64,000 bases of DNA, taken from the IMG/VR virus record IMGVR_UViG_3300032373_000001; one strand, written 5' to 3'. How positions within the stretch are numbered: the first letter of the stretch is position 1; each line of letters opens with the position of its first letter. Below the pieces are notes generated by a model that had not been told where the DNA came from, did no database searches, and saw only the letters and a list, made by a program, of their open reading frames with translations. Positions 11,150 through 57,640 of the stretch are shown piece by piece. The position numbers were made by a program, and so were the translations under genes. This DNA comes from a virus (Duplodnaviria; Caudoviricetes).

Positions 11150-11180
11150 CCGTCACTCCTCATCAGGAGTACGGTTACGG
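11150..11180 (-). promoter_or_regulatory. CCGTAA element + SD-sequestering hairpin
   Basis: CCGTAA|CCGT-ACTCCT-GATG-AGGAGT-G-ACGG|ATG. Confidence 0.7.
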
Positions 11181-11204
11181 TACTGACAAGCCTGGGAAGG
11201 CTGA

Positions 11205-11648
11205 TCAGCCCGTGATGATCACCCGATCAGTGGCGCTGGACTGGACCTGGATAAACTCGACAGCGGCGATGCGCAGGTCCGGCACGACCTCGCACCCGGC
11301 TGCGCGCATGGCGATGTGAATCGCGCGGACATGAGTGAAGGTGGCCCGCATGCCGTCGATGCGCCACGCGGAGTCGTGGTTGGACGCCAGGGTGTAGTCC
11401 TCGTCTGCGGGCTTCTCCCACTCAGAGGGGGTGTCCGCCACCCAGACCTCCGTGTACTGCATCGGGCGCACGAAGATGTAGTGGATGCAGCGCTGGATGC
11501 AGTGATCCTTTTCCGACCCCTCTTCGTATTCGTAGTGGTCGGCGCGCACGACGACGCGGACCACGAGGGCCTTGTCCGGCCCAGACTCGCGGGGAAGGAC
11601 CCCCTCCACGACAGCGGCAACGGAGCAGTTCAGGTTGGTGGGGTTCAT
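11205..11648 (-). CDS. Hypothetical protein (start revised to ATG 11648)
   Basis: ATGA overlap with 11645..12022. Confidence 0.65.
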   Translation of the reverse strand: MNPTNLNCSVAAVVEGVLPRESGPDKALVVRVVVRADHYEYEEGSEKDHCIQRCIHYIFVRPMQYTEVWVADTPSEWEKPADEDYTLASNHDSAWRIDGMRATFTHVRAIHIAMRAAGCEVVPDLRIAAVEFIQVQSSATDRVIITG

Positions 11649-12022
11649 CGGCCAGTCTCCAGGTAGTCTCGGTGTGAGTAGATAAGGGTTTCGACCAGGT
11701 CCCAGCAAATGCGGTGGCTCTCATCCAAGAGGTGAGACGCCTCGGAGAACGGGATTCTTATCCCGTAGGATTTGAGCAAGCTGCTGAGGTAACCGCAAGC
11801 CACGATGCGGTTTGTCTCGTCCGCGAAGGGGAAGTGGTGGGAACCGTGGTAGGCGCGGGCAAAGTTGTAAGCCGCCTCCCCTCCAGGAACCGCCCGCACT
11901 TCATCCAAGAAGGTTTCATCCAGTTTGTCTCTTGCTTCTTCGGCCGAAGAAGCATCCTTGAAGTAGCGGTCCCAGCGGATGGACTTCAGCAGCGTGTGGA
12001 CACATCTAAGCGTGCGTGCCAT
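11645..12022 (-). CDS. Hypothetical protein
   Basis: AGGAGGAG SD. Confidence 0.65.
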   Translation of the reverse strand: MARTLRCVHTLLKSIRWDRYFKDASSAEEARDKLDETFLDEVRAVPGGEAAYNFARAYHGSHHFPFADETNRIVACGYLSSLLKSYGIRIPFSEASHLLDESHRICWDLVETLIYSHRDYLETGR

Positions 12023-12401
12023 CAGTCTCCTCCTGGAAAATCAGGCTCTCGCGGCCGGCGGTCAGTGCCCTGACCAGGCCCCAGTTGATGCAACCGTTGG
12101 GTTGCAGGAAGGTTCGGAGGCCGTCGTACTCAAGAATGACTCCCCACACCCGAAAGTGCAGCTGAAGGTAGAGCAGCGCGGAGTGCTCCCCATCTTCCCA
12201 GAGGCAAGTCTCCACCCAGCGTCGGCGAGCACAGTAGTAACCCTGTGCCTGCGACCACAACATACGCAACAGCGGGGAGTAGTCGTCCCATTCCGGGGGT
12301 GACCACACGGCCAGCATGGGCTTCCCCGACTCAGGGACCGCCTTCCTCCAGTAGTCGGGGATGCTGAACTGGTCAGCGAGGTACATATCTTCGGCGTTCA
12401 C
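12006..12401 (-). CDS. Hypothetical protein
   Basis: Tiling, protein-like composition. Confidence 0.6.
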   Translation of the reverse strand: MNAEDMYLADQFSIPDYWRKAVPESGKPMLAVWSPPEWDDYSPLLRMLWSQAQGYYCARRRWVETCLWEDGEHSALLYLQLHFRVWGVILEYDGLRTFLQPNGCINWGLVRALTAGRESLIFQEETDGTHA

Positions 12402-12404
12402 CGG

Positions 12405-12659
12405 TCAGCCCTGAAGGTCGGCGTACATGGCCTGAGCGCGGTCGCTCAGGCTCGACCAGCCCGCCTCCTCAGCTTCGGCCCAGATCTCATCCAGGATGGA
12501 GCTGAGAGGCTGGCCCCACCGTTCTTCGATGCGGTCGATGGCATCGTCGTACCGGGGCCCGTTGAGGCGGTTGGCCCGGTCGATGGCGTCGAGGGTGCGG
12601 CAGAGGGAAGCCTTGCGACCGGCGGCGCGGATGCCGGGTTCGCGGCGAGGGAAAGCCAT
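12405..12659 (-). CDS. Hypothetical protein
   Basis: GGAG SD; first ORF after promoter 12690-12718. Confidence 0.65.
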   Translation of the reverse strand: MAFPRREPGIRAAGRKASLCRTLDAIDRANRLNGPRYDDAIDRIEERWGQPLSSILDEIWAEAEEAGWSSLSDRAQAMYADLQG

Positions 12660-12689
12660 GGGGGGACTCCGAGTGCGGGTTCATAGTCG

Positions 12690-12718
12690 TTACGGGCAAA
12701 AGCAGAATCAGAAAGCAA
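12690..12718 (-). promoter_or_regulatory. Conserved promoter variant TTGCTT-N17-CCGTAA
   Basis: TTGCTT TCTGATTCTGCTTTTGC CCGTAA; same 17-nt spacer. Confidence 0.65.
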
Positions 12719-12754
12719 GCAATCCTCCAGCTTTGGGAAAAGCTGGAGGATTGC
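12719..12754 (-). terminator. Intrinsic terminator abutting the next promoter
   Basis: GCAATCCTCCAGCTTT-TCCC-AAAGCTGGAGGATTGC 16-bp stem followed by T-rich TTGCTTTCTGATT. Confidence 0.75.
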
Positions 12755-12770
12755 GGCAGGGCCGAGACTA

Positions 12771-13292
12771 TCAGGCAGAGGCCATCATCGCGCGGCACTC
12801 CTCGGTGAGGGTGACGGCCTGGGCAGCGGCAACGAGGTCCATCGGCTTCTTGCAGATGGCTTCGATGGCCTCCCAGATGGGCTGACCTGTCAGATCCCAG
12901 TGCTCGGGCTTGGTGGAGTACCCGATGGGGCGGGTGAGGCTCTGAGCGACTGCCACGCTGGGCTTGAGGCCGTGAACCCACAGGTACGCGCCGACCCAGC
13001 GCCACCCCTCTTCGTAGCGAGCAGCCCGCTTGTCGTCGTCGTGGCGGCGGGGACCTTCCGACGGCCAGCACGACCAGGTGAAGTTGCCGTGCCACGCACG
13101 CCCCAACCCCCAGAGCCGACGGTAGTTGGGGTTCCCCTGCGCGACGGTGGCCTCGACGATGGCCTCCATTTCCACGACCCGTGCGCGGTGGCGGCGAGAA
13201 GGGTACGGGCTATCGGACATGCAGGACGACCAGTCCATCCGGCGGATGCGGGCGGCGAACTCCGGGAGGGTGGGGATATCGACGTGGCTCAT
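12771..13292 (-). CDS. Hypothetical protein, paralogue of 10694..11149
   Basis: Shared W/G/H-rich motifs; lies after promoter 13323-13351. Confidence 0.75.
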   Translation of the reverse strand: MSHVDIPTLPEFAARIRRMDWSSCMSDSPYPSRRHRARVVEMEAIVEATVAQGNPNYRRLWGLGRAWHGNFTWSCWPSEGPRRHDDDKRAARYEEGWRWVGAYLWVHGLKPSVAVAQSLTRPIGYSTKPEHWDLTGQPIWEAIEAICKKPMDLVAAAQAVTLTEECRAMMASA

Positions 13293-13322
13293 GACTCAGC
13301 TCCGTGTAAAGGGTCACCTTCA

Positions 13323-13351
13323 TTACGGCAGCGAATTTGAGCGGAAATCAA
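13323..13351 (-). promoter_or_regulatory. Conserved promoter TTGATT-N17-CCGTAA
   Basis: TTGATT TCCGCTCAAATTCGCTG CCGTAA. Confidence 0.75.
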
Positions 13352-13372
13352 CCCGACGACAGAAATTCCGAA

Positions 13373-13849
13373 TTAGCCGAGCAGCAGGGGGCGAAGAAGG
13401 GCCAACATCCCCCTGCCGCCCCGGAGCCTCCCTCGTAAATCCGGGGTCCGCTCGTACAGGCAGTCTTCTTGTTCCGCCCACTGTCGCAGGGTGCCTCCGC
13501 GCACGCAAAACAGGGTCATCCGTATCCTCGGAGGCAATGCCTTGAACATGCAGTTCCGGGGCAGGTTCAGGACCCGCTCCCGTTCTTCAGAGGAGAGGTC
13601 CCGGTTAGCCAACATCTCTGCTACTGCCACCCGGTAGCGATCCCCGGCTTGGTGGTACCACTCTTGACCTCGGATGCCCGCAGCCCAGGCGTCCTGAACG
13701 CTGGCTTGCCATAGGGGGTCGTTCTTCGCCGGAAGAGGCACCTGACCCAGCTTCGTGCACCCCAGAGCTATGGCCAGCTCCACGCCTTGCTGGGCGTCAG
13801 CTGCCAGGGTTTCTTTCAGGGTGGTCTCTTGATGCGGTGTAAGGTTCAC
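13373..13849 (-). CDS. Hypothetical protein
   Basis: GGAGG SD before GTG start. Confidence 0.6.
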   Translation of the reverse strand: MNLTPHQETTLKETLAADAQQGVELAIALGCTKLGQVPLPAKNDPLWQASVQDAWAAGIRGQEWYHQAGDRYRVAVAEMLANRDLSSEERERVLNLPRNCMFKALPPRIRMTLFCVRGGTLRQWAEQEDCLYERTPDLRGRLRGGRGMLALLRPLLLG

Positions 13850-13873
13850 AGCCCCTCCTCTGTTTAGAGAGCC

Positions 13874-14275
13874 TTACTTCTTCCTCAAGCGGAGGAGGTC
13901 TTTGAACTCGGGGTCTTGTTCGGCCCGCTGCCTTGCCAAGAGCCGGAGGGAATTCGCCAGGGCCTCGACAGCCTCTTCTCGGCTGCCGAACCCCTTCGAG
14001 TATCCGAGGTGCCAGGGGAGAGTCCCCGAGGAGGTACGGGTGGTGAAGGTGATGCCGAATTCCCTCCGGGCATGCCAGCCTATGAAGAGATAGATCCTGG
14101 CCCCGTCCGGGACGTCTCGAGGGAGGCCCAAGAACCTCTCCACCTCCGCCCCGCAGTGGCGGAAGCCCCCATAGCTCTTCGGGACGAGCCTCTCAGCGAA
14201 GCCCCGGTACACTGCGGGGACTTCGGGTTGCGCGGGCTTCCTTGAGGTGAAGAAGTCAAGGATTCGACTCAACAT
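13874..14275 (-). CDS. Hypothetical protein
   Basis: Tiling, protein-like composition. Confidence 0.65.
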   Translation of the reverse strand: MLSRILDFFTSRKPAQPEVPAVYRGFAERLVPKSYGGFRHCGAEVERFLGLPRDVPDGARIYLFIGWHARREFGITFTTRTSSGTLPWHLGYSKGFGSREEAVEALANSLRLLARQRAEQDPEFKDLLRLRKK

Positions 14276-14285
14276 TGGAAGCCCC

Positions 14286-14585
14286 TTAGCAGTCCGTCGC
14301 AGCCCTCCACTTCATGTGGCGGCGTGCCCGCTCGACTGCAACAGCTTGGCTTACGGTGCTGGAACCCACCGAGGCAATTCGCCACCACTCGGGATCAGGA
14401 TCCTTCCCGCCGACCCGCTGGATTTGGATTTGCATGCCCTCCCGGATAACGAGCTTCCCCTTCCGCTCGGGGAGCCATGTCACCAGTTCATGCTCGCCGT
14501 ACTCGCTCTCTCGCTGGAGGGTGAACTGGCGATAGAGGACGTTGCCCCCATTTGAGGACCCAGACTTAGAATCAAACACGCGCAC
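14286..14585 (-). CDS. Hypothetical protein
   Basis: GAGGT SD before GTG; preceded by a structured leader. Confidence 0.6.
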   Translation of the reverse strand: MRVFDSKSGSSNGGNVLYRQFTLQRESEYGEHELVTWLPERKGKLVIREGMQIQIQRVGGKDPDPEWWRIASVGSSTVSQAVAVERARRHMKWRAATDC

Positions 14586-14596
14586 CTCATTGTAGT

Positions 14597-14752
14597 GAAC
14601 CCCAGTCCCCTCAAGGCTGAGGACTGGGGTTCTGGGAGCTTGTTCTTCCGGGTCACCAGGCTCAACTCCCTCTTGCCCGGTGGTGACCTGCCTGCCCTCT
14701 AAGGAGCAGGGACCCAGGAGGGGGCTCTTGCCCGCGCTGGGTCAGTGTTCAG
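14597..14752 (-). ncRNA. Candidate structured RNA / leader with four consecutive hairpins
   Basis: Stems 14711-17/14737-43, 14691-97/14704-10, 14651-58/14681-88, 14597-14632; repeated CGGGCAAGAG at 14670-79 and 14725-34; GGGTAA element at 14759-64. Confidence 0.4.
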
Positions 14753-14777
14753 CATCCCTTACCCGGTCCCAACGAGT

Positions 14778-14932
14778 CTACAAATTCCGGCGACCTTTGA
14801 CCCAACCTTGCCCCAAAAAGGAGGGGAGGTCCCGCAGATAAACTTGCTTGGGGCGGCATCCAGGCTTGGAAATCCATCGATGTAAAATTTCCCATTCAGA
14901 AGGTTGGTTGTCTTGTAGACCGTAAACCGCAT
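14778..14932 (-). pseudogene. GIY-YIG (Seg-like) homing endonuclease remnant with large internal deletion
   Basis: MRFTVYKTTNLLNGKFYI (GIY-YIG N-terminus) joined out of frame to WISKPGCRPKQVYLRDLPSFLGQGWVKGRRNL* (typical GWxKGR C-terminus); locally AT-richer. Confidence 0.75.
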
Positions 14933-14975
14933 GAATCCTCCGAGGGTAACAACAGTTGTTACCCTCGGAGGATTC
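14933..14975 (-). promoter_or_regulatory. Perfect 21-bp inverted repeat sequestering the SD of the endonuclease relic (possibly also tmRNA 3' processing/termination signal)
   Basis: GAATCCTCCGAGGGTAACAAC-T-GTTGTTACCCTCGGAGGATTC then ATG; GGGTAA lies in the 5' arm, GGAGG in the 3' arm. Confidence 0.75.
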
Positions 14976-14988
14976 CTTAGATACGAGA

Positions 14989-15406
14989 TGGAGATGTCGG
15001 GAATCGAACCCGAGTCCTCAGCGAATCGTCAGCGTGCGTCTACGTGCGTATCCTCAGTTGATGATGCCCGGACCCCGTCGAGGAACCCCTTGGTACAGGC
15101 ATGGCCAGCTACAGCATTAGAGCGTCAGCGAGTATTGTATTCTCGTCCCTCTCCACCGCTTTGCCAGAGCGGCTTCCTGGGACTATCCAGGTCTTGATGC
15201 GCCCGAACCTAAGACCCTGACATCTACAGGACGGACGGAGGCTCCAGTTAAGGAGCTAAGAGGCTCACGCCGCGAGGCGTACACCCCCCTCAAAGTAGTT
15301 GACGTTGTTTGCATCTACCGTGTTGACTGATTGTTCACAGGGGTTGAGTCTTCCCCTGGCACGCGGCAACCCTCGATCTTCACCGAGTCGAAACCAGTGC
15401 ATCCCC
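14989..15406 (-). ncRNA. ssrA: tmRNA (one-piece, CCA not encoded)
   Basis: 5' GGGGATGCACTGGTTTCGAC; acceptor stem GGGGATG/CATCTCC with G3-U70 and discriminator A; T-arm TCGGG-TTCGATT-CCCGA; conserved ACGCACGTAGA; internal tag ORF. Confidence 0.95.
15265..15312 (-). other. tmRNA proteolysis tag reading frame ANNVNYFEGGVRLAA*
   Basis: Resume codon GCA, ends LAA-TGA as in canonical ssrA tags. Confidence 0.9.
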
Positions 15407-15429
15407 ACAATGTCAAAGAGCAAGAGTCC

Positions 15430-15891
15430 TTACCGGATAGGCAAGCTATCCAGACTCAGCGCTTGGCTCACGGCTGCGTCGAGCAAGTCTTCCGCCACGG
15501 TGCTGTCTTCCTCCAGGCAGGCTTCCCGGATAGCACCGACCAGCATCTCCACTCGCTGAGCCTGAAGCTGCTCTCGCCGGATCTGGTTCTGGAGGTCTCG
15601 GTGAACCGCCCTCAAGTCCTCCTTGAGGGCCGCCTCGCGGGTCATGGCTGCGGAGATGATGTAGCGGACAGCCTGTTCCGCGAAGAACAGAGGCCCGACG
15701 TAGGAGCGGACATCTTGAAGCTGCTGCACAGAATAGGCAGTGACCCCATGACGCATGAACGCCTGACGGGCCTGGGCAGCGTTCGGCAGCACCAAGGCAC
15801 CGCAGACCTTATCCGCTGCGTCGGCCAGGTAGCTCAGGTATCCAGACCCGGCACGACTCGACAGAAGATCGAAGAGGGCATCGAATTTCAC
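15430..15891 (-). CDS. Hypothetical helical/coiled-coil protein
   Basis: GAGGAG SD before GTG; tiling. Confidence 0.65.
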   Translation of the reverse strand: MKFDALFDLLSSRAGSGYLSYLADAADKVCGALVLPNAAQARQAFMRHGVTAYSVQQLQDVRSYVGPLFFAEQAVRYIISAAMTREAALKEDLRAVHRDLQNQIRREQLQAQRVEMLVGAIREACLEEDSTVAEDLLDAAVSQALSLDSLPIR

Positions 15892-16025
15892 GGTGACGGC
15901 TCCTCGTCTGACTTCTTGAGGTCTTCCAGGGCCTGACGCAGGAGCCCCTTACTGGCACGGGACCGCCCCCGTGGGAAACCCCCCAAGATCCCCAGCAACC
16001 TGTCAAAGTAATCGTCTTCCATTCC

Positions 16026-16220
16026 TCACTCCTTGTCGAACCGGGAGAGCTTGCGTCTGGTCCGGCGGATTACCTCTTCGAGATCCACTTTCCCCTGGGG
16101 GCGTATGGAACCCTCAGTCACCCCCAGAGTCCGGGCCATCTCAAACCCTTGTGCTTCTTGGCCTCGGTCGAAGCTCAACAAGAGCCGGATGAGGTTGTCT
16201 GGTACGTCCAAAGGGTTCAC
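16026..16220 (-). CDS. Small hypothetical protein
   Basis: GTGA overlap with upstream ORF. Confidence 0.55.
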   Translation of the reverse strand: MNPLDVPDNLIRLLLSFDRGQEAQGFEMARTLGVTEGSIRPQGKVDLEEVIRRTRRKLSRFDKE

Positions 16221-16486
16221 AGGTTCGCCTTGACGTGATCCCGAAGGAAGCTGTGCAGGATCTGAGGGATCTGGCCTTGGTCCAGCACATACTGCCCGAG
16301 ACTGCCGCGGAACACGAACATCTGCCCGTGGAGTTGCACGAAGGAGTCCAGATACGCTGCCTGCTCTGGGTAGAGGGGGCGTAAGGTATCCAACATCTCC
16401 TGCCCTTGCAGAAACTGGTCCCTGTCACCACTGAAAAGCAACTCCAGCAGCGTCACGGGCAGGAGGTCCTGGTTCACTTCAGGCAC
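16217..16486 (-). CDS. Hypothetical protein
   Basis: GGAGG SD; protein-like. Confidence 0.6.
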   Translation of the reverse strand: MPEVNQDLLPVTLLELLFSGDRDQFLQGQEMLDTLRPLYPEQAAYLDSFVQLHGQMFVFRGSLGQYVLDQGQIPQILHSFLRDHVKANL

Positions 16487-16517
16487 ATGGGCAACGGATC
16501 CTCCGGATCAAGAAGGT

Positions 16518-17144
16518 TCAGACCAGCCTGAACTCGTCGAGGGCATCAACCAGGGTCCTGCTCTCGGCCTGCCTCTTGAAGTGGTCGTTCACCACCCGGA
16601 AGCGCTCCTGCATCCAGAGACGACCCAGCCAGTTCTCACCGACCCACTCCCCCGTCGCAGTCTTCGCAGCGCCCCAGAACACCCCAGAGCCCCGCGCCCG
16701 TCGGGTGCAGTCCTCGATGATGGGGCGACCCCCGGTGGCTATCAGCTTCTCTCGGAGCACTGGGTGCTGTTCCAGCTTCATGCGCAGGATCTGCCGCATG
16801 TTCTGGAGGTCCTTCTCGCTGAGAGGCTTCACCGTCATGAAGGGGGTGTTGCCCCCATTCTTGGCGATCATCTTCGCCTTCATCGGGTTCTTCTCAGCGC
16901 GGACTGCCTTTTGAACATCGGAAGCACGGCAGAAGAAGTCGCGCTCTTCCTGAGAAGCCTGCACATCGGAGCGCACCATCTTCAGGCCCAGCTCTTCAGG
17001 AACGAAGTAGCGCATGCACTGGAAGAGCTGCTCCGCTCTCGGGTAGACGAGGCCCTCGTGGGTGATGGCGTGCGGGCTCATGTTCGACATCCAGCCGAAC
17101 TCGTCTCGCACCTTCCCGATCAAACACGGCCCTACGGGTCCCAT
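16518..17144 (-). CDS. NADAR (YbiA-like) family hydrolase (start revised to ATG 17144)
   Basis: FGWMSNM, AEQLFQCM, MRQILRMKLEQHPVLREKLIATG, IIE..FWG..GENWLGRLWM. Confidence 0.85.
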   Translation of the reverse strand: MGPVGPCLIGKVRDEFGWMSNMSPHAITHEGLVYPRAEQLFQCMRYFVPEELGLKMVRSDVQASQEERDFFCRASDVQKAVRAEKNPMKAKMIAKNGGNTPFMTVKPLSEKDLQNMRQILRMKLEQHPVLREKLIATGGRPIIEDCTRRARGSGVFWGAAKTATGEWVGENWLGRLWMQERFRVVNDHFKRQAESRTLVDALDEFRLV

Positions 17145-17677
17145 TTCTTCCTCCCCACGTCGCTGGCCTTCAAGGGCCTCCATTTACCCTGGTCCAAGAC
17201 CCAGTAGTTGCCCGTGCTGCGGTCGAGGAGCTTGTCTCCAGCCATGAAATCGCAGGGCAGGTAGCCTGCCTTGAGCGTGTTGTAGCGGCGGTTCAAGGAC
17301 AACTTGAACACGCCATTCGTCGAGGCGACCAGCTGGTTGACCATCAACACCAAGTCACCCGCCTTAACGCCATCGAGGCTGAGGTTGTTGCGGTTCGCCG
17401 GCTTGTCGATGACGCAACCCACGTGAGTACGCAGTCGTCGGACCCGCACCCCGCTCTCTACGTTGAGAGACTGGTCCACCACCTCAAGGTCGCCCTTCGC
17501 GATGAGCCGCTGGGCGGTTTCGGGCAGGATCAGCGAGAAGAACTCCTCGTCAAAGTAGACGAGGACGTCCCCGTTTTCCATGTAGACGATCCGCTGAGGC
17601 TGGATTTCCAGCTCAGGGCTACTCCTCGCCTTCTCCTTGAAGACGTCCCGCATACTTTCGACGGGTTTTCTCCCCAC
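17132..17677 (-). CDS. Hypothetical protein with motif seen in virion fibre proteins
   Basis: DGVKAGDLVLMVNQLVASTNGVF resembles the DGV..GDRVLVKNQ..NGIY module (recalled, not searched). Confidence 0.5.
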   Translation of the reverse strand: MGRKPVESMRDVFKEKARSSPELEIQPQRIVYMENGDVLVYFDEEFFSLILPETAQRLIAKGDLEVVDQSLNVESGVRVRRLRTHVGCVIDKPANRNNLSLDGVKAGDLVLMVNQLVASTNGVFKLSLNRRYNTLKAGYLPCDFMAGDKLLDRSTGNYWVLDQGKWRPLKASDVGRKKWDP

Positions 17678-18116
17678 GTACCGACCCCCGGAAATTCTTT
17701 TGAAGGCGAGTTACCCTGCCCTTCAAGGTGGAGATCTCCCTGCGGGCGTTCCGGAGGTCTGAGCGAGCCTCGGCCAAGTCGCTGACTGTTCGATTCAGGA
17801 CCCGGAGGACCTGGCTCAGGTCCTGCTCCATCCCCCCAACCCGTTCGTCGAGCTTCGGGGGTTCTGGGGGCTCGCTCCGGGGAGGTCCTGCCTGGGCTGG
17901 CCGTGGAGTGACTGTCCGAGAAGGGACGCGGCGCACCTTCTTGCGGGGAGGGCGGGTGGGCTGCACATGCACCTTGCGCTGACCGACCAGCACTGCGAGG
18001 CACTGGGAGCCGTCTTTCTGCTCTTGGGTGATGAGCGCAGGGGCGTCTCGCCGTACCTTCAGGTCGAGGTCTTCGACCGGGATGTACTCTTCGCTGAGGG
18101 TCAAGATCTTGTACAT
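17619..18116 (-). CDS. Hypothetical protein with Pro-rich linker and coiled coil
   Basis: GAGG SD; heptad region LSQVLRVLNRTVSDLAEARSDL. Confidence 0.6.
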   Translation of the reverse strand: MYKILTLSEEYIPVEDLDLKVRRDAPALITQEQKDGSQCLAVLVGQRKVHVQPTRPPRKKVRRVPSRTVTPRPAQAGPPRSEPPEPPKLDERVGGMEQDLSQVLRVLNRTVSDLAEARSDLRNARREISTLKGRVTRLQKNFRGSVRGEKTRRKYAGRLQGEGEE

Positions 18117-18125
18117 GACCTCGTT

Positions 18126-18479
18126 TTACCCTTCCTTGCGAAGAACCCCCCGGATACTGAACACTCGATTGTTGAGGGGGTCGTACACGTAGGCTGAGCC
18201 ACCCTCATAGGAGCAGGCGTTTTGGAGGTGCTCTTGTACGCTCCCAGGCCACACATCCACCAAGTTCCCGCAGTCCAGCGGAAACTTCCAGCCCCCGAAC
18301 TTGTTGGTCCTTGCCCCTGGGGGGATCAACAGCGCCACGGTGTTCCACCGCTCGAAGGGAACCAGCAGGTCCCAGTCGTCGGGGGTCTTGGTCGAGACCC
18401 CTGCGAAGACCCGTGCAGTGCTGCCCGCGATCAGCGCCCCCTCCCGGCACATGCGGTAGACCAGGCCAGGGAGCTTCAT
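18126..18479 (-). CDS. Minimal Pol-beta-superfamily nucleotidyltransferase
   Basis: ALIAGSTARVF...PDDWDLLVP (hG[GS]...DxD) and downstream VDVW third acidic residue. Confidence 0.65.
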   Translation of the reverse strand: MKLPGLVYRMCREGALIAGSTARVFAGVSTKTPDDWDLLVPFERWNTVALLIPPGARTNKFGGWKFPLDCGNLVDVWPGSVQEHLQNACSYEGGSAYVYDPLNNRVFSIRGVLRKEG

Positions 18480-18901
18480 TCCTCACCCTCGACGGGGAAG
18501 TGCGCCCTCATCTCCTGGTCGTAGCGTAGGAGCTGCATTTCCGCAGCATCCTGAGCGATCTGACCCAGCTCTCGGAAGAGAGAGCGCACTCGCAGGGCCT
18601 GCCCTGCGTTGAGGGCGACGGATTCCCGTGGGGAACCCTCACTCCTGTCCTTCGTGCTCTCGACGTAGAGGTAGCCGGGTTGCGGGGGGTCCATATGGAA
18701 CCGGACATGAAAGAAGAGGTCCCTGTAGGCCCAGCGGTGAGCATCAGGGTCGACGGGTTCCTTGGGGTCGCGACCCCAGACATACCTGCAAAAGGTCCCG
18801 GCCGTCTCTGCGAAGTGCCTCAGCTTGCCCAAGGACTGGGCCTGGGCAATGAACTCTTGCAGCTGTTGGTTGGTAGAGAACGCTTCCAAGAAGCTCTTCA
18901 T
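18476..18901 (-). CDS. Hypothetical protein
   Basis: GGAGG SD in hairpin 18905-18924. Confidence 0.7.
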   Translation of the reverse strand: MKSFLEAFSTNQQLQEFIAQAQSLGKLRHFAETAGTFCRYVWGRDPKEPVDPDAHRWAYRDLFFHVRFHMDPPQPGYLYVESTKDRSEGSPRESVALNAGQALRVRSLFRELGQIAQDAAEMQLLRYDQEMRAHFPVEGEE

Positions 18902-18904
18902 TCG

Positions 18905-18929
18905 ATCCTCCCTCTGGGGAGGATTTACC
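18905..18929 (-). promoter_or_regulatory. GGTAA element + SD-sequestering hairpin
   Basis: GGTAA|ATCCTCCC-CAGA-GGGAGGAT|CGA-ATG. Confidence 0.7.
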
Positions 18930-19510
18930 TATCGGAACAGGTCCAGCTCCCCCGCCAGCAAGCCTTGAAGCAGCTCAGGGATCAGGGCGGCCAGGGCCGC
19001 TTTCTGGCCTCGGCGCAGGCCTCGCTCAAGGAAGAGGTACTTCCGGAAGCCGGGGTGGATCCAGTACTTGCCTCCCGCCAATAGATCGGGCGTCGCCCTG
19101 ACGATGACCTCTCCGTCCTGGAGCACGATCCTCGCAGCCGGAACCTTCTTGCGGGTCAGCCACCTCATCTCAAAGGGCTCGGCGGGGCCTGGAGTCTTGC
19201 GCTCAGGGTCCAGAGGCGTGGTGGTGTGGTTGCGGGCAGTGGGCCAGTCTGACGTGATGATCAACGTGTTCCTACCCTGGACCCGGAACTTGAAGCTCTT
19301 GGCGAAGTCTGCTGTCTTGGGGATGGGTGCGGGCTGACCCCTCTTGCGGACGGCAGCAGCCTTCGCCGTGTCGGCGCGGATCTCTTCTTGGATCGCCTTA
19401 ATGATAATCGCCCCGGCACGCCGAAGCTGTGCCGGGGTCAGTATGATCTTCTTGCCGCTCAGGCTGCTGAGAGGGTCATCCCCTGTACTGAGCGTGACAT
19501 CATCGGGCAT
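18929..19510 (-). CDS. Putative virion morphogenesis/tail-completion protein
   Basis: Basic protein with WIHPG motif and IxxxIxEEI helix typical of such phage genes (recalled). Confidence 0.45.
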   Translation of the reverse strand: MPDDVTLSTGDDPLSSLSGKKIILTPAQLRRAGAIIIKAIQEEIRADTAKAAAVRKRGQPAPIPKTADFAKSFKFRVQGRNTLIITSDWPTARNHTTTPLDPERKTPGPAEPFEMRWLTRKKVPAARIVLQDGEVIVRATPDLLAGGKYWIHPGFRKYLFLERGLRRGQKAALAALIPELLQGLLAGELDLFR

Positions 19511-19555
19511 CAATCCCTCCACCCAGTCAGCGAGGGATTGATGCCCGACCGGATC

Positions 19556-19930
19556 TCAGAAGTGGTCCCAGATCTTGACGCAGAACTGCATGGAGCAGCT
19601 CTGGCCGGAGCCGGAGCAGTTGCCGCTGCAGCTCCCGTCCAAGCTCCCCGACAGGTCGTGGGAGATCGACACCTTGCAGCCGTTGTTGCTACAGTTGCCG
19701 CCCGTGCACATGCAGCTGTACATGGTACCACCGCCCGGCGCACCGTGCGCCACGCCCACCCACTGCATCCCAGGGCCGAGGACGACCGGCACATCGGTGG
19801 GGCCGTTGACGATGATGTCGGGGCTGCGCATGTTCGCGCCGTCGGGGGCCTCGATGACCTCCTTCTGGAGGGCGGTGTCGAACTCGTTCATCTCAGGGGC
19901 GCACGCCAGCGCCAAAGTCAGGAACAGCAC
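19556..19930 (-). CDS. Cys-rich lipoprotein with very short signal peptide
   Basis: MLFLTLALA-C lipobox; 8 Cys in C-terminal 50 aa; AAGGAG SD; AT-rich upstream region with GGGTAA. Confidence 0.7.
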   Translation of the reverse strand: MLFLTLALACAPEMNEFDTALQKEVIEAPDGANMRSPDIIVNGPTDVPVVLGPGMQWVGVAHGAPGGGTMYSCMCTGGNCSNNGCKVSISHDLSGSLDGSCSGNCSGSGQSCSMQFCVKIWDHF

Positions 19931-20103
19931 TCTTGTCTCCTTGGGTAGGTGCCTGAATGTCTCAGGACTGGGATTCTATTACCCTATTATTTTGCGTGGG
20001 CGGAAGGAGTTTCTTTGGCTTTGGGGGCGGGCAGTCGAATTTGTGCGAAGAGGGGGGCGTTGACTCCCGAATATACCTCAAGCGCTCGTACAACAGGTCC
20101 CTT

Positions 20104-20536: not shown

Positions 20537-20569
20537 AAGAAAAGACCACGCAGGGGGCTTCCCCCTACG
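20537..20569 (-). terminator. Probable terminator after neck-like gene
   Basis: CGTAGGGGG-AAG-CCCCCTGCG stem then GGTCTTTTCTT. Confidence 0.5.
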
Positions 20570-23007: not shown

Positions 23008-23340
23008 TCAGCCCTCTCCAGGCTCCGTCGCATCTTCGAGCACCTTTCCGGGCTTCGCTGCCTGGGCAGCAATCTTTGCTACCCGAACGAAGCGGTCGAC
23101 ATAGGCGATGCCCAGGATGGCCCCGACCTCCAGGAACACCGTACATACGGTGAGGACGCACATCCACCACCACAGTCCGGTGCCCTCTGCTCCGGGGTGG
23201 CCCATCAAGACCCAGAGGCCAGCGCCCAGCAGGACCTTGGAGGTGATCTCCGAGAGCAAGAACGCCAAGAACTTCTTGCTCTCCAGCGGAGAGGGATCGC
23301 GGACTTCAACTTTGGCCGGCGCTTCTACGGGAGTGCTCAT
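23008..23340 (-). CDS. Holin-like membrane protein (start revised to ATG 23340)
   Basis: 110 aa, SKKFLAFLL followed by two hydrophobic helices and charged C-terminus, next to tail genes. Confidence 0.5.
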   Translation of the reverse strand: MSTPVEAPAKVEVRDPSPLESKKFLAFLLSEITSKVLLGAGLWVLMGHPGAEGTGLWWWMCVLTVCTVFLEVGAILGIAYVDRFVRVAKIAAQAAKPGKVLEDATEPGEG

Positions 23341-23371
23341 GCACTCCCGTAGGCATAAGCATTTCAGTGAG

Positions 23372-28726: not shown

Positions 28727-28760
28727 TGACCCCTCCTGCCAGGAGGGGTCAGATAGTCCT
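28727..28760 (-). promoter_or_regulatory. SD-sequestering hairpin preceded by GACTAT element
   Basis: GACTATC-TGACCCCTCCT-GGC-AGGAGGGGTCA-AGCAG-TTG start of wedge gene. Confidence 0.6.
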
Positions 28761-28775
28761 GTTAGCGGAAACAAC

Positions 28776-37173: not shown

Positions 37174-37211
37174 GGCATGCTCCAGGATATGAGGGTGATA
37201 TCTCACCCTCA

Positions 37212-37240
37212 TTACGGCACCCCTGCCGCCCCGAAATCAA
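37212..37240 (-). promoter_or_regulatory. Conserved promoter TTGATT-N17-CCGTAA
   Basis: TTGATT TCGGGGCGGCAGGGGTG CCGTAA. Confidence 0.75.
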
Positions 37241-38640: not shown

Positions 38641-38672
38641 TAAGCACCTCCTTTGGTTGGAGGCACTTACCG
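38641..38672 (-). promoter_or_regulatory. CGGTAA element overlapping an 11-bp SD-sequestering hairpin
   Basis: CGG-TAAGTGCCTCC-AACCAAA-GGAGGTGCTTA-ATG (two G-U pairs). Confidence 0.75.
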
Positions 38673-47074: not shown

Positions 47075-47771
47075 GCTCTACCCCCAGCATCTCCAGCCTC
47101 GCCAGCACCAAGAAGGCATCCAGCAACCCCGAGTGGTCGCCCAACTGACGGCGGGCCTCGCAGATTCGGGTCACTGCCTCTTGAGCGTCCCGGAGGGTCA
47201 GAGGTTCTTCTCGGTCCAGGTAGCGAAGCGCCCCCTTGAGGTGGCTGGCGGCTTGCTTGGGTCCCTGCCTCCTACGATAGCCGGTCAGCAGGTGTTGCCA
47301 GGCGAAAAACTCCACCTCATCCTTGAGCGGTCGGCGCGGAGGAAGGACCACCCCATGACCCCTCAAGCGCTTGACGATGGAGCCTTCCCCCGTAGCGTAC
47401 ACTGCAGGGGCGCTGACCCGGAAGAATTCAAGGAGCCAACTCTGGGCAAGCAGCACCCCTTCCTCCGGGGTGAACCACGAGGGCAACGTCTTCCAGTAGC
47501 GGTGGAACCGCTCCGAATCAGAGCTCAAGAACGAGTGGAAGACCCTCGACTCGGAGGCCCCCAGAGAGATTCGAAGCTCCTCCGCCTGGTCGAACAGGTC
47601 TTGGTTGACGATGCGGTCTCCCATAGACCCGAACGACTCCGCGTACAGGGCGAAGAGCCCCTCTCGGAGCTCTCCGGGAAGGTCGGTCCAAGCTACGGGG
47701 TCGGTCTCCGCACGCCCTTCACCCCGAACCACCGGGTCACGTCCACTTCCGCTCGGTCGCCCGCACTCCAT
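47067..47771 (-). CDS. Hypothetical protein (start uncertain)
   Basis: Tiling; helical composition. Confidence 0.5.
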   Translation of the reverse strand: MECGRPSGSGRDPVVRGEGRAETDPVAWTDLPGELREGLFALYAESFGSMGDRIVNQDLFDQAEELRISLGASESRVFHSFLSSDSERFHRYWKTLPSWFTPEEGVLLAQSWLLEFFRVSAPAVYATGEGSIVKRLRGHGVVLPPRRPLKDEVEFFAWQHLLTGYRRRQGPKQAASHLKGALRYLDREEPLTLRDAQEAVTRICEARRQLGDHSGLLDAFLVLARLEMLGVERA

Positions 47772-48928
47772 GTCTGGAACTCCCCTTGACTTGTGAGGTG
47801 CGCGTACGACTTACCGGAACCGTAGGCCATGCTCACCCGGTAGGAGCTGGACCGGGAGGACCGCTCCAGGGCACGGAGAGTGAAGTCGGGCCAGTAGACG
47901 TTGTGGTCGTTGCCCGAAGCGCGGACGGTACGGCCGCTGGCCCAGCGCTGGGTGCGATACTCGCACTTGTCTTCCACCACCGGCTCCTCGCAGTACTTGG
48001 GGACGTCTTTGCAATCCTCGCCGACCTTCTCCTTCTTCGGGACGTCCACGCAGACCTCCTCAGCGAACCCGTTGCCGAGGTCGTTGACCTTACACTCTTC
48101 CTCGGTGTAGCGGCGGTAGATGGGCTCGCACTCCTCCTCCGTCCCGCACTGAACGCGGGTGGTCTTGCGGGAGTCTTCCCAGCAACGGACCATGTCCATC
48201 CCTGCCCGTTCCCCGCTACCGTTGACTGGGCGAATCTCCCGTCGCTCGCTGGCGTCGCTGCGCCACTCAGCCACGGTCGTGTCGGTCCACACCTCAGTGG
48301 TGATGGTGCGGCTCCAAGAGAGGCTGCTCACCTTGGCAGGCTGCCACTCCGACTGGGACCCGTACCAGAGGAACCAGACGAGGAAGCAGACCGCCACTGC
48401 CCCCAGGAGGATGTACAGGGCAGTCAGGCCCCCACCGCCCGCAAAGACGGCAGCCATCCCTCCCCGAGTTCCGCCGTTGCCCGCAGAAGACGTCGACGAT
48501 CGCTGCGGGGTTCGAGGCGACGGGGTTGCGGCAGGGGTTTGGGGGGTGAAGCGAGGCCGCGGTGCGGCTTGCCGCAAGGTCGGAGTGGGTGCCGGTTGGG
48601 GGCGGGGCTCTGGGCGACCGCTGAACTTGGGCAGACCTCCGGTCGCCTTGTTGTGCCCCCCTCGGGGGAGGCCGCACTGCTTGCAAGCGTCCGCGTCACC
48701 CCGGTTGCCAGCACTGCATCCCTCGCAGTGCCAGTCTGCACCCGCACGGGCCTTTTCGAGCAACTTCGGGTCGGTCACAGTGTTGTCCCGGTCGATGCGA
48801 GCACCCTTCAGCTCAGCACCCTCACGGGGATTCCCGCAGTTCGGGCAGATCTTGTGCCGACCCTTAATTGACTTGGAGCCGCAAGAGTCGCAGCCCCAAG
48901 ACATCTCAATAATCCGACGACGAGCCAT
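47693..48928 (-). CDS. Double zinc-ribbon membrane protein
   Basis: WGCDSC...CPNCG, WHCEGC...CKQCG, Pro-rich linker, one TM helix, Cys-containing external domain. Confidence 0.8.
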   Translation of the reverse strand: MARRRIIEMSWGCDSCGSKSIKGRHKICPNCGNPREGAELKGARIDRDNTVTDPKLLEKARAGADWHCEGCSAGNRGDADACKQCGLPRGGHNKATGGLPKFSGRPEPRPQPAPTPTLRQAAPRPRFTPQTPAATPSPRTPQRSSTSSAGNGGTRGGMAAVFAGGGGLTALYILLGAVAVCFLVWFLWYGSQSEWQPAKVSSLSWSRTITTEVWTDTTVAEWRSDASERREIRPVNGSGERAGMDMVRCWEDSRKTTRVQCGTEEECEPIYRRYTEEECKVNDLGNGFAEEVCVDVPKKEKVGEDCKDVPKYCEEPVVEDKCEYRTQRWASGRTVRASGNDHNVYWPDFTLRALERSSRSSSYRVSMAYGSGKSYAHLTSQGEFQTWSAGDRAEVDVTRWFGVKGVRRPTP

Positions 48929-48931: not shown

Positions 48932-48968
48932 GTAGCCTCCTGCCCGCGACGGGCAGTCCGGCTTACGG
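48932..48968 (-). promoter_or_regulatory. CCGTAA element overlapping SD-containing hairpin
   Basis: CC-GTAAGCC-GGA-CTGCCCG-TCG-CGGGCAG-GA-GGCTAC-AAA-ATG. Confidence 0.6.
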
Positions 48969-52675: not shown

Positions 52676-52716
52676 TCCCCTCTTCGGGGGAAGATTCAGC
52701 TCCTCCCCGCTTAAAT

Positions 52717-53559: not shown

Positions 53560-53601
53560 AGGACCGCACTCCGTGATTGAGGTCAGTCAGGACTACCGGA
53601 A

Positions 53602-54219: not shown

Positions 54220-54440
54220 CAGGGATTCTCCTTCAGTTCTTCGAGCTGGGCAGCCAAAGCATCGCGCTCCGCCAACAGCTCAGCAGTGAGATCGGGGAGG
54301 CGCAGTAGCAGGTCCCCGCACTCTTTGGTGATGTCGTTGAGGATGAACACTCCCAGGCCATCCCCAGGAGGGTCAGCAGCTACTGAGTCTCCGGCATTCT
54401 TCAAGAGAAGGCGGAGGAGCTGCAGTCGTTCAGGTTTCAT
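54219..54440 (-). CDS. Small hypothetical protein (start revised to ATG 54440)
   Basis: TGATG coupling to dNMP kinase; C-terminal coiled coil. Confidence 0.55.
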   Translation of the reverse strand: MKPERLQLLRLLLKNAGDSVAADPPGDGLGVFILNDITKECGDLLLRLPDLTAELLAERDALAAQLEELKENP

Positions 54441-54462
54441 GCCTAACCGTACCCTCCTGGGG

Positions 54463-54492
54463 GGTAATCTTCCGTACACGGAGGATAGGATG
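54463..54492 (+). promoter_or_regulatory. GGTAA element + SD-sequestering hairpin
   Basis: GGTA-ATCTTCCG-TACA-CGGAGGAT-AGG-ATG. Confidence 0.7.
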
Positions 54493-55296
54493 CCCCTGGT
54501 CGCTTACCGTAGAAGCGTCGTCACCCCCGACACTGCCGAAGCCATGCGCAAACTCGAACAAGCCTTACATCAGGTGGGCGGGGTGCGACTGGTATACAAG
54601 GGGGTCCGCAGGGAAGAGTCCTCCTGGGCGCACACCGAGGACTGGCCGGGGCCAACAGACCAAGCCCCCGACCGGAGCATGCGACCCACCGGAAGAGAAG
54701 TCTACCTCCAAGTGGTGTCGGAACACCTCAACAAGCAAGAGGCCCTGAACCTGCTGTGGGCCAAGGCGGTGCCCTTGGGCTTCATGCCCTGGAACCGCTA
54801 CCCCACGACAGGGCCTGGTGCGACCTGCTTCCACTACTTTGGGAAATGGAAGCAGATTTTGGAGTTCCTCCACGGCAACGGGGAAGGCGAACATGCTTGG
54901 TCCAGTGCCTGCTGCGCCGCCCAACTGGAGGTAGGAACCTGGGAAGGCGACCGGCCAGTGGAGCGAGAAGTCCAAGCGCTCTTGACGCTGGTGGGGTTCC
55001 CCTGCGGTCCGATAGATGGAGTCATCGGACCCCGCACGGCCACCTCCTTGAAGGCGATGGGCCTCCTCGGCAAGACCATGGTCGAATGCCTTCCCGCGCT
55101 ACGCTCTTTGCAAGGAGCCCTCGCCCGCTCTAAAGAAAACCGCCCCGCCAAGAAACGGCAATTCTTCCTGAGCGTTCCTCCGGGCGCACTGGTCCAAGCG
55201 TACACGAGCGGAGGAGTGGTGGCGACACAGACTCCCGCTGGATACGCAATCACCCACACTGAGTCAGGGAAGTTGATTCTGCTATTCGGAGACTGA
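54490..55296 (+). CDS. Peptidoglycan-binding-domain protein with M15-peptidase-like N-terminal region (start revised to ATG 54490)
   Basis: VQALLTLVGFPCGPIDGVIGPRT (PG_binding_1); APDRSMRPTGREVYL aligns to M15 SxH-x6-D motif without the ligands. Confidence 0.65.
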   Translation: MPLVAYRRSVVTPDTAEAMRKLEQALHQVGGVRLVYKGVRREESSWAHTEDWPGPTDQAPDRSMRPTGREVYLQVVSEHLNKQEALNLLWAKAVPLGFMPWNRYPTTGPGATCFHYFGKWKQILEFLHGNGEGEHAWSSACCAAQLEVGTWEGDRPVEREVQALLTLVGFPCGPIDGVIGPRTATSLKAMGLLGKTMVECLPALRSLQGALARSKENRPAKKRQFFLSVPPGALVQAYTSGGVVATQTPAGYAITHTESGKLILLFGD

Positions 55297-55297
55297 C

Positions 55298-55900
55298 ATG
55301 GACCATTCCGAGCACGCATTGGCCTGTGCGATCTACGGGGACTGTATCTTCGAGGAGGTCCAGGAAGGTGTGAAGCTATTGGAGGCTGCCTGGAAGAAGG
55401 ACCTCCAGAAGTATCCGCAGGTCATCGTGCAGAGCACCAAGGGGCGGGGGTGGTTCTTCCCTCGCCAGGTGGTCACCTCCGACTGGCTCCGCTTCATGCT
55501 CTTCCAGCCGGGGAGGCTATGGCCGGTGAGGCTCAAGGGGAAGCAGCGAGAGATGCTCCAGCTCATGAAGGCGGCGTCAGGACTGGCCCCCCGCGTGCAT
55601 TCCACCCCCAATGGGGAGCTCTACAGTGAAGAGCAGACCCTACAGGCGATGGAGCAGCTGGCGGATACCTTCCAGAAGCAAGTGGCCGCGCCCATGTGGC
55701 AGAGCTATGAGCGGGTGAGTCGCACCATGGGCCAGAAGCTCCTGCCCCTGTGCGAAGACCGCTATGGGTCCTGCACCCGCGAGGAAGCCGTGGGGATCTT
55801 CCAGGGGGACCTGGAGCGAGGGCTCCGGATGAACACCTTGGAAGTCAGCCCTCAAATGCTTCAGGTGCTTCCTAAGTTCTTGGAGTGGATTTCGGCTTGA
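55298..55900 (+). CDS. Hypothetical protein
   Basis: GGAG SD; tiling. Confidence 0.7.
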   Translation: MDHSEHALACAIYGDCIFEEVQEGVKLLEAAWKKDLQKYPQVIVQSTKGRGWFFPRQVVTSDWLRFMLFQPGRLWPVRLKGKQREMLQLMKAASGLAPRVHSTPNGELYSEEQTLQAMEQLADTFQKQVAAPMWQSYERVSRTMGQKLLPLCEDRYGSCTREEAVGIFQGDLERGLRMNTLEVSPQMLQVLPKFLEWISA

Positions 55901-55943
55901 TCAGCGCGCGACGGTAATTAGTCTACACAACACCGGAGCCCGC

Positions 55944-57551
55944 ATGGACCTGTTGGCGAAGCTGCGCCTCGTCAGGGAAAAGGAAGACATCCAGCTTCCT
56001 GAGACCCCTTACTTCCGCAAGACCTACACCCACCGCAGCGGGGAAGAGCGACCCCTTAGCTTACGCAGCTACCAAGCCCAGATGGTCGTCAACCTCCTGG
56101 CCATGAAGCGGTTCGTGGTGGGTGACGACACCGGATTGGGCAAGACTATCGAGACGATTGGGGCCTTGTGTCAGGTCTGGGCAAAGCAGCCCACCAAGAA
56201 AGCCATCGTCGTCACCAAGAAATCTTCGATGACTCCGGGGTGGGAAATCGAGGGGTTCGGAGCCTTCACGCAGGGCGTGAAGGTCTTGATGGCATTGGGT
56301 TCCCCCAAGAAGCGTCAAAAGGCGCGCCAAGAGTGGCTGGACCACGACGGGCCGGTGGTCATCATCTACAGCTATGGGGCTTGGGCCAACGACTTCAGCG
56401 AGACGATGGGATGGGAAGACTACATCATCATCTTCGATGAAGCCACCGTGTTCAAGAACCCCAAGACCCGCATCCACAAGGTCTGCAAGCACTCCTCAGC
56501 CCAAGCAGATCGGTGCTGGTCACTGACTGCTACGCTCATCAAGAACAACCTCATGGAGGGCTACGGCATCTACCGGGTGACGGTGCCGGGGCTGTTCAAC
56601 ATGAACGAAGCCACCTTCATGCAGAGCTACTCGCTCATCGAGATGAAGCGGGTGGGCAGGAACCGGCGAGTGCCGACCATCGTCGGCTACCACAAACGTC
56701 ACATCGAGATGTTCCGCCAACAGATCGAGATGTACTACCTCGGACGCCCCAAGCACGCCGTGGCGGACGACCTCCCGATGCTGACCTCCAGGGACGTGAA
56801 GATCGGCCTCACCTCCTGGCAGAAAGAGAAGTACCAAGAAGCCCTGACGGGGCTCATGGAGCACGGGGACGGAGAGCTCCGCGACTTCACCGAAACCACC
56901 CAGCTCACCTCCCTGATCTACTGCCAGGAGATCGTCAACCATCCGGGGCTAATCGAGTATCCGGACTACAGGTCCACCAAGCTCGATGCCCTGACCGAGA
57001 TGCTGACCGACGGAGAGTTCGAAGGCGAGAAGGTGATCATCTTCACCCGGTTCAGCAAGATGGTCGGCATCGCCAAAGCCCACCTGGAGAAGAAGGGACT
57101 CACTTGCGTGGCTGTTACGGGCGGGGAGTCTTCGAAGCAACGCAAGAACGCGATGCTCAGCTTCCAGAACCCCAAAGACCCCACCAACGTCATCTTCATC
57201 ACCATGGCAGGCGGGGATGCGATCAACCTCCAGGCAGCGAAGGCGCTGATCTTCTTCGACACTCCCTGGTCGGCTGGCGACTACATCCAGATCCTGGGGC
57301 GGATGATCCGGATCGGGTCCGAGCACGACCGGGTGTATGCGATCCACCTGGTCTGCCTGGATACCATCGACGAACATGTCCAGGCAGTGGTCAAGAAGAA
57401 GATGGCCCTGATCCAGGCCGTGCTGGGCGAACGCGTCAAGGGTGAGAAGGGTGAAACCAAGGTCTTCCAGAACTCCTCGGATACGCAAGACCTCTTCGAT
57501 GCCCTCCAAGAAGATGCGCGCCGAACGAAGGGCGCTCCCCAGCCCGCTTGA
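55944..57551 (+). CDS. SNF2/SF2 helicase-like ATPase
   Basis: LRSYQ, DDTGLGKT, IFDEAT, LTATLIKN, KVIIFTRF, GGDAINLQ.A, QILGRMIRIG. Confidence 0.92.
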   Translation: MDLLAKLRLVREKEDIQLPETPYFRKTYTHRSGEERPLSLRSYQAQMVVNLLAMKRFVVGDDTGLGKTIETIGALCQVWAKQPTKKAIVVTKKSSMTPGWEIEGFGAFTQGVKVLMALGSPKKRQKARQEWLDHDGPVVIIYSYGAWANDFSETMGWEDYIIIFDEATVFKNPKTRIHKVCKHSSAQADRCWSLTATLIKNNLMEGYGIYRVTVPGLFNMNEATFMQSYSLIEMKRVGRNRRVPTIVGYHKRHIEMFRQQIEMYYLGRPKHAVADDLPMLTSRDVKIGLTSWQKEKYQEALTGLMEHGDGELRDFTETTQLTSLIYCQEIVNHPGLIEYPDYRSTKLDALTEMLTDGEFEGEKVIIFTRFSKMVGIAKAHLEKKGLTCVAVTGGESSKQRKNAMLSFQNPKDPTNVIFITMAGGDAINLQAAKALIFFDTPWSAGDYIQILGRMIRIGSEHDRVYAIHLVCLDTIDEHVQAVVKKKMALIQAVLGERVKGEKGETKVFQNSSDTQDLFDALQEDARRTKGAPQPA

Positions 57552-57600
57552 GAGTGCACTTCGGTGGTGGAATGGTCGGCCGCTGACGGCTTGGGCTACG

Positions 57601-57640
57601 CCGTATTAGGGGCTACGCCAAGAAGGGAGCCCCTAATATG
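57601..57640 (+). promoter_or_regulatory. CCGTAT element + 11-bp hairpin covering the start region
   Basis: CCG-TATTAGGGGCT-ACGCCAAGAAGGG-AGCCCCTAATA-TG; also direct repeat GGGCTACGCC at 57593 and 57610. Confidence 0.6.

Follow-up and report, generated by a model that had tools for sequence, protein, structure and literature searches.

A stretch of 64,000 nucleotides (nt) from a virus of the Caudoviricetes (IMG/VR record IMGVR_UViG_3300032373_000001; the whole stretch is called the window) raises the question of whether translation of a gene can be made to depend on which promoter produced its messenger RNA (mRNA), by means of hairpins that pair the ribosome-binding site (RBS) and have a promoter-like element at or inside their 5' arm. 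The phage is uncultured and huge (411 kb), with a G+C content of 62% in the window. The genes from 1 to 54440 lie nearly all on the minus strand, followed by a plus-strand block (54490-58173) and then a minus-strand gene of 1788 amino acids (aa), and the encoded products include a DnaB-like helicase, a primase zinc ribbon, a family-A DNA polymerase, an SNF2 helicase, a MoxR/VWA pair, baseplate proteins and a transfer-messenger RNA (tmRNA). A preliminary description of this DNA had claimed nine such hairpins, seven with a (C/G)GTAA-type element and two with a G(G/A)CTAT element, and had proposed that they follow the logic of bacteriophage T4 as a general design. All nine are found where they had been placed, on the strand of the downstream gene, and independent pipeline gene calls put a start codon directly 3' of each. 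The T4-like logic gains support at the G(G/A)CTAT sites, where a box and a hairpin that pairs the Shine-Dalgarno sequence (SD) occur together and, at the baseplate gene, recur in relatives with matched arms, and loses it at the (C/G)GTAA sites, which had been the main class. The best reading of the data, with about an even chance of being right, is a T4-type silencing of read-through RNA at the genes preceded by this box.

The G(G/A)CTAT element, formerly a side class, is half of a conserved late-promoter-like box, CGGT-N7-CTAT. In the window the box, in the form CG(G/C/T)T-N7-C(T/A)AT, precedes four genes, all on the minus strand: the baseplate gene 27555-28721, 18929-19510, 3157-3525 and 4242-4439. 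Three of these boxes fit CG.T-N7-CTAT, the only matches to that pattern in the window, and stand on the sense strand 46-53 nt upstream of a start codon; the fourth, a CAAT variant, is 41 nt from the start of its gene. The hairpin begins 0-5 nt past the box or inside it, and the SD is in the 3' arm or the outer tier. To score such locks, the SD, spacer and start were held fixed while the upstream 30-40 nt were dinucleotide-shuffled, the statistic being the energy required to open the SD; the start codons were those of 90 gene calls from the collection pipeline, mapped to window coordinates and independent of SD scoring. Before the baseplate gene, whose TTG start at 28721 is supported by full-length homologues, the box has the variant form CGCT-N7-CTAT (28753-28767) and is followed by a hairpin of 11 base pairs (bp; TGACCCCTCCT/AGGAGGGGTCA, 28727-28751) with a folding free energy (dG) of -20.1 kcal/mol and the SD in its 3' arm (shuffle p 0.005). 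Gene 18929-19510 has a box with one mismatch, CGGT-N7-CAAT (19537-19551), and a long hairpin (GGGCATCAATCCCTC / GGAGGGATTGATGCCC, 19505-19546) that buries both its SD and its ATG (p 0.005) and has a 5' arm overlapping the box. At gene 3157-3525 a CGTT-N7-CTAT variant (3557-3571) adjoins a 9-bp hairpin (TTCTCCGCA/TGCGGAGGA, 3534-3557) that holds the SD in its 3' arm (p 0.005). Gene 4242-4439 has an exact box, CGGTAG-N5-CTAT (4478-4492), and a two-tier hairpin (TCCT..AGGGGTC gtaa GGCCCCT..AGGA, 4448-4478); the SD pairs in the outer tier, and this lock is weaker (p 0.13). Locks at p ≤0.15 are present in 4/4 box spacers versus 12/32 others (Fisher p 0.03). By in-silico folding and shuffle tests, the SD and/or the start codon are paired in a stable local helix, and hairpin and box stand in a fixed neighbourhood that is conserved in relatives with matched changes of the arms.

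The baseplate protein has more than 120 full-length homologues of 45-91% identity, and 83 related loci were fetched for comparison. At the position homologous to that of the box, CGGT-N7-CTAT is found in dozens of related contigs (L010-L126), which represent related huge phages of 40-67% G+C from many habitats; it is present in most of the 83 loci, with 62 occurrences on the gene strand versus 7 on the opposite strand, 13-58 nt before starts. These comparisons suggest that the box may be read by phage-encoded machinery. Canonical sigma-70 promoters in positions 1-20000 of the window are not above chance, which fits promoter motifs that are specific to the phage. In one related contig (L019) two boxes form a back-to-back palindrome upstream of divergent genes, and another has a TnpB/OrfB_IS605 gene (L009:20075-21182) 13 nt past a late box, directly after a Volactin-like gene.

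The lock itself can be followed at the baseplate gene. In the closest clade (GGTA-N6-CTAT), 13 of 25 distinct sequences bury the SD at p ≤0.05, compared to 4 of the 27 remaining sequences, and since both groups have similar G+C, base composition does not explain the excess. The 22 baseplate hairpins with a dG of -10 kcal/mol or lower have 16 different 3'-arm endings, and their stem positions outside the GGAG core are occupied by GC, CG, AT and TA pairs; since this table of pairs takes the SD as its anchor and follows the fold of each individual sequence, the swap and shuffle tests alone serve as controls. When halves were swapped across stem families, the median SD burial of 12.5 kcal/mol in native leaders fell to 5.4 kcal/mol in the chimeras, and native leaders exceed nearly all of their own chimeras, a drop that indicates compensatory evolution. 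Covariation in related phages, proposed beforehand as a check, is borne out for the baseplate gene by these matched changes, and on comparison of the sequences its lock is kept by compensatory changes in the arms. RNAalifold predicted no pairs from a MAFFT alignment of 24 baseplate leaders, because stems of differing length and position are out of register in the alignment. The 5' arm stays beside or inside the box even where the loop is long, and in about nine sequences the CTAT bases themselves belong to the arm.

The simplest objection to locks of any kind is that a GC-rich genome forms stems by chance, or that ordinary terminators happen to overlap an SD. One strand alone has 191 hairpins with a dG of -10 kcal/mol or lower; stems of at least 6 bp over the SD are not enriched at RBS sites (5/49, versus 105/1098 other GGAG sites); and terminator-like structures at 4197-4230 and 12719-12754 also contain CCTCC/GGAGG. 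Following the null result, the stem-length criterion was replaced by tests of energy and shuffling. Hairpins with a dG of -12 kcal/mol or lower cover 7 of 90 RBS sites, compared to 2.3% of coding positions (p 0.005). Measured against dinucleotide shuffles, the SD is buried in 8 of 89 genes at p ≤0.01 (0.9 expected) and in 12 of 89 at p ≤0.05 (4.5 expected); the eight genes beyond the 1% tail include three of the four box genes, and the remaining genes resemble their own shuffles (median p 0.48). By the shuffled controls that had been suggested, SD pairing is above chance in a subset of genes. The named RBS hairpins all lack a T-tail and are followed by a spacer and a start codon, and the terminator-like calls in the window (15 versus 14.5 expected) include 12719-12754 and no named RBS hairpin. 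The clade shuffles and half-swaps, with arms matched across relatives, largely refute chance for the box class, and as an account of the locks chance or terminators are extremely unlikely. A real subset of RBS locks exists, amounting to about one gene in ten, and a general design was an overstatement.

Several other structures came to light in this survey. A preference of strong hairpins for CCTCC in the 5' arm and GGAGG in the 3' arm was considered and dropped, both orientations being present (not quantified). The structure at 4197-4230 (minus strand) is a classical two-way terminator, A5-GCCCCTCCCA-tgac-TGGGAGGGGC-T5; the TTG start at 4197 that the pipeline assigned to gene 3565-4197 lies inside it, so that the ATG at 4170 is the likelier start. 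At gene 23008-23340, a perfect 12-bp hairpin (23325-23352, minus strand; dG -22.7 kcal/mol) takes in the start region: the SD belongs to the 5' arm, the loop contains the ATG, and codons 2-5 make up the 3' arm. A start context, GGAG(A/C)GA(G)(C)ATAG-ATG, is common to 9422-9910, 20565-22706 and 58174-63540 (cggagagatagATG twice and gggagcgagcatagATG once).

Silencing of the T4 type would act at the box genes as follows. RNA reading through from co-oriented upstream genes would contain both arms, fold and be poorly translated, and RNA begun a few bases past the local box would be missing most of the 5' arm and would be translated. From position and conservation we infer that the box acts as a promoter; transcription would start a few bases downstream of it, and upstream transcripts would read through. 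With RNA modelled to start 7 nt past the box, the median lock decreases from 11.8 to 2.7 kcal/mol in the relatives, and to 1.6-4.8 kcal/mol in the four window genes (for 18929-19510, from 12.5 to 1.6 kcal/mol); in this modelling, unlocking occurs only if the RNA starts at least about 6 nt past the box. In the window, and likewise in two related contigs (L008, L009), the baseplate gene is the first structural gene past a co-oriented replication block, which by analogy with T4 gene e is where silencing of read-through would be useful. T-tailed terminators were not found between the co-oriented upstream genes and the sites; together with the co-orientation, this is at most suggestive of read-through from upstream.

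Several observations weigh against silencing of read-through at the box genes. The lock is absent in half of the close relatives and in most distant ones. If the RNA starts 1 nt past the box, the lock is kept at a median of 11.2 kcal/mol and the hairpin stays in the late mRNA. At the baseplate site of the window and in one relative (L016) the anti-SD lies 8-13 nt past the box, so that even a start at +7 leaves a stem of 6-7 bp there. Some box-to-start distances are only 13-17 nt, which favours a start close to the box, and given the shortness of the spacers any SD-pairing hairpin is bound to begin close to the box, which makes adjacency by itself weak evidence. In most relatives the start codon of the baseplate gene is TTG or GTG, with a conserved Ser codon next to it, and such weak starts fit a simple design for low expression.

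Much of this can be put together differently, as a constitutive attenuator or 5'-terminal hairpin: transcription would start at or just before the arm, every late mRNA would carry the hairpin, and a low-copy baseplate protein might thereby be kept low while the 5' end is perhaps protected from decay. The full retention of the lock with a start 1 nt past the box, the short distances from box to start and the weak start codons are all in keeping with this alternative. The window offers a parallel in the bipartite promoter-like motifs TTG(A/C)TT-N17-CCGTAA, of which the five described previously are real (7422-7450, 8893-8921, 12690-12718, 13323-13351 and 37212-37240, all on the minus strand): the motifs at 8893-8921 and 37212-37240 are followed within 0-2 nt by strong hairpins (8861-8890, dG -28.9 kcal/mol, and 37184-37210, dG -16.1 kcal/mol; minus strand) that leave the SD untouched. 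These look like 5'-end hairpins but may also be stops for read-through, and their lack of contact with an SD suggests that promoter-proximal hairpins have other roles too. Stabiliser stem-loops at the 5' termini of bacterial and phage mRNAs, of the type in the ompA 5' untranslated region, likewise begin a few bases from the presumed transcription start, but they leave the SD free, whereas here the SD is in the 3' arm. A constitutive hairpin also sits poorly with the roughly nine sequences in which the stem reaches the invariant CTAT, pairing that would be pointless if those bases were untranscribed, and a lock of 11-19 kcal/mol added to a weak start would leave almost no synthesis of a structural protein that is essential. 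Such a hairpin is missing at other late-box genes in the relatives, which counts against both accounts. The constitutive hairpin is a possibility of a minor but appreciable kind.

Silencing of read-through RNA has its precedent in the masking of T4 genes e, soc, 49, I-TevI/II/III and segB and of Aeh1 mobE by hairpins that contain a promoter (PMC3014915, PMC2988022). The likenesses are that the SD and/or AUG is in a helix, that the DNA encoding its 5' strand has an element like a late promoter, that the gene lies downstream of co-oriented earlier genes, and that the structure is kept in related phages. The differences are the motif (CGGT-N7-CTAT, compared to TATAAATA in T4), the carrier (an unrelated 411-kb huge phage of 62% G+C), the target (a baseplate gene, compared to lysis or endonuclease genes) and the evidence, given that starts and read-through have been mapped in T4 and are deduced here from sequence. 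T4 also places an RNA stem where translation of a baseplate gene begins, the split RBS of the wedge gene 25 (Nivinskas 1999; Malys and Nivinskas 2009), which as cited in PMC3014915 is likewise conserved in only one clade of relatives; that stem, as the citing paper has it, lies in the spacer from SD to AUG and makes initiation more efficient, whereas the stem of the baseplate gene here pairs the SD and should inhibit. What the window adds is a new lineage, a new promoter box and a baseplate gene as the target; the device itself is known from T4. Whether the box genes belong to the T4-type class would depend on the positions at which their transcription starts.

A further way to open the hairpins would be translational coupling, in which a ribosome ending the upstream gene melts the 5' arm and downstream translation depends on upstream translation. 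The 5' arm begins 0-10 nt past the upstream stop at 3157-3525, 18476-18901 (where a TAG stop is 4 nt before the arm of hairpin 18905-18929), 18929-19510 and 37237-38640, within reach of a terminating ribosome. A stop within about 15 nt of the arm is present at four sites and missing at five; it is 24-145 nt away at 27555-28721, 10694-11149 and 47693-48928, and the site of 54490-55296 sits in a divergent spacer. Among relatives the gap upstream of the baseplate gene measures anything from 44 to 93 nt, with the hairpin still beside the box. Coupling is very unlikely as the explanation of the hairpins.

The preliminary description had gone further, taking a lone (C/G)GTAA to be the -10 element of a promoter that seven or more RBS hairpins contain in their 5' arm, and the two element types perhaps to mark two temporal classes. 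One of the GTAA sites is the 11-bp stem (two G-U pairs; dG -15.1 kcal/mol) at 38641-38672 on the minus strand, over the SD of 37237-38640 (shuffle p 0.005). Also on the minus strand, CCGTAA followed by a CCGTACTCCT/AGGAGTGACGG stem (11150-11180) covers the SD of 10694-11149 (p 0.01), an 8-bp stem (ATCCTCCC/GGGAGGAT, 18905-18929) belongs to gene 18476-18901 (p 0.07), and a 7-bp stem (CTGCCCG/CGGGCAG, 48936-48968) overlaps the SD by 2 nt only (p 0.02). On the plus strand, an 8-bp stem (one G-U pair; dG -9.3 kcal/mol) at 54463-54486 lies over the SD of 54490-55296 (p 0.11), and an 11-bp stem at a CCGTAT site (57601-57640) covers the spacer and start of the 55-aa gene 57638-57805 (p 0.03), with the SD partly in the loop as had been reported. 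The seventh site, at 14933-14975 on the minus strand, is a perfect 20-bp hairpin (dG -35.1 kcal/mol) with GTAA inside its stem; it covers the SD of a 57-aa open reading frame (ORF; 14759-14932) and lies 10 nt past a tmRNA gene, and is probably a tmRNA 3' end or terminator structure. The tmRNA gene itself (14986-15406, minus strand) is full-length (Rfam 118.6 bits), with the predicted tag peptide ANNVNYFEGGVRLAA. Four of the seven stems (dG -8.5 to -12.8 kcal/mol) do not stand out in strength from the background of 191 hairpins.

There is some substance to a role of GTAA. The tetranucleotide is enriched about 5-fold in intergenic DNA, mostly on the sense strand and 10-60 nt before starts; CCGTAA is the -10-like half of the five bipartite motifs; RNA modelled to start 7 nt past GTAA unlocks most sites; and CCGTAA lies upstream of the homologues of 36667-37173 in two related contigs. 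At the bipartite motif 13323-13351 (minus strand), the spacer and CCGTAA pair with the SD and ATG of 12771-13292 (p 0.005), thus forming the 5' strand of its lock, and in the same modelling its SD opening energy falls from 9.8 to about 4.5 kcal/mol; this gene is the one remaining positive case for a link between GTAA and a lock. Against a general link, locks occur in 5 of the 21 spacers with GTAA versus 6 of the 15 without it (36 spacers of at least 25 nt), a negative outcome in the very control that had been proposed, and hairpins begin -3 to +8 nt from GTAA in 7 cases versus the 3.4 expected from the densities of both features in upstream spacers. The TTGATTTC half (-35) of the bipartite promoter is absent at the GTAA hairpin sites, one of the seven follows a tmRNA gene, another (48932-48968) barely covers the SD, and locks are confined to about 10% of genes. 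For 37237-38640 and 18476-18901 there was no homologue among 5.8 billion proteins in which covariation could be sought; several homologues of 54490-55296 in IMG/VR contigs are preceded by the late box, CGGTA-N6-CTAT, where the window has GTAA. The (C/G)GTAA sites form a heterogeneous group: their hairpins are genuine, but a link to a promoter is unsupported, and the claim in its full form is quite unlikely to be right.

Two variants of the GTAA idea were ruled out: the GGTAA sites are not upstream halves of the late box, given that CTAC at the right spacing occurs only at 55912-55926, and CCGTAA is not generally enriched on the gene strand in relatives (45 plus versus 81 minus). A compact motif, TTG(A/T)C(C/A)-N3-CCGTAA, is found on the minus strand at 5782, 8251, 11180 and 48968 with identical spacing (in one case with CTGACC), and is distinct from the bipartite TTGATTTCC-N14-CCGTAA form.

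The window matches a 410,989-bp metagenome contig in ENA, from a microbial mat, and the sequencing runs listed as containing the phage are three, all of them DNA from microbial mat metagenomes and none of them RNA. At about 48320, in gene 47693-48928, the 411-kb ENA record (L006:12239) has a 17-nt tandem duplication (GCAGCCTGCCAAGGTGA) that is absent from the window and breaks up the 411-aa ORF, so that two genes of 205 and 212 aa are called in its place. Searches of a phage collection with the window, by near-identity and by protein, gave no match, nor did single-protein scans of IMG/VR with a 467-aa protein and the DNA polymerase, and neither Pfam nor PHROGs has a family for the ten proteins that adjoin the hairpins.

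In its widest form the finding may be that a family of huge phages shares a late box of its own and repeatedly evolves matched anti-SD arms next to it, that in this phage gating also proceeds from early-type CCGTAA promoters, as at 12771-13292, and that the origin of a transcript is a widespread determinant of translation in giant phages that marks the boundaries of temporal modules; this extension is offered tentatively and is unlikely as a whole. If the transcription starts of the box genes fall inside the arms, silencing of read-through in the manner of T4 would be no peculiarity of the T-even phages, having arisen convergently in giant phages with a different late promoter. The box CGGT-N7-CTAT would then be a sequence handle for the prediction of late genes and temporal-module boundaries in uncultured huge phages, and the arrangement would explain how the baseplate gene stays silent early in infection although it lies directly behind the replication block. 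With either reading of the hairpin, an SD that is locked in front of a TTG or GTG start is a usable marker of tightly limited expression.

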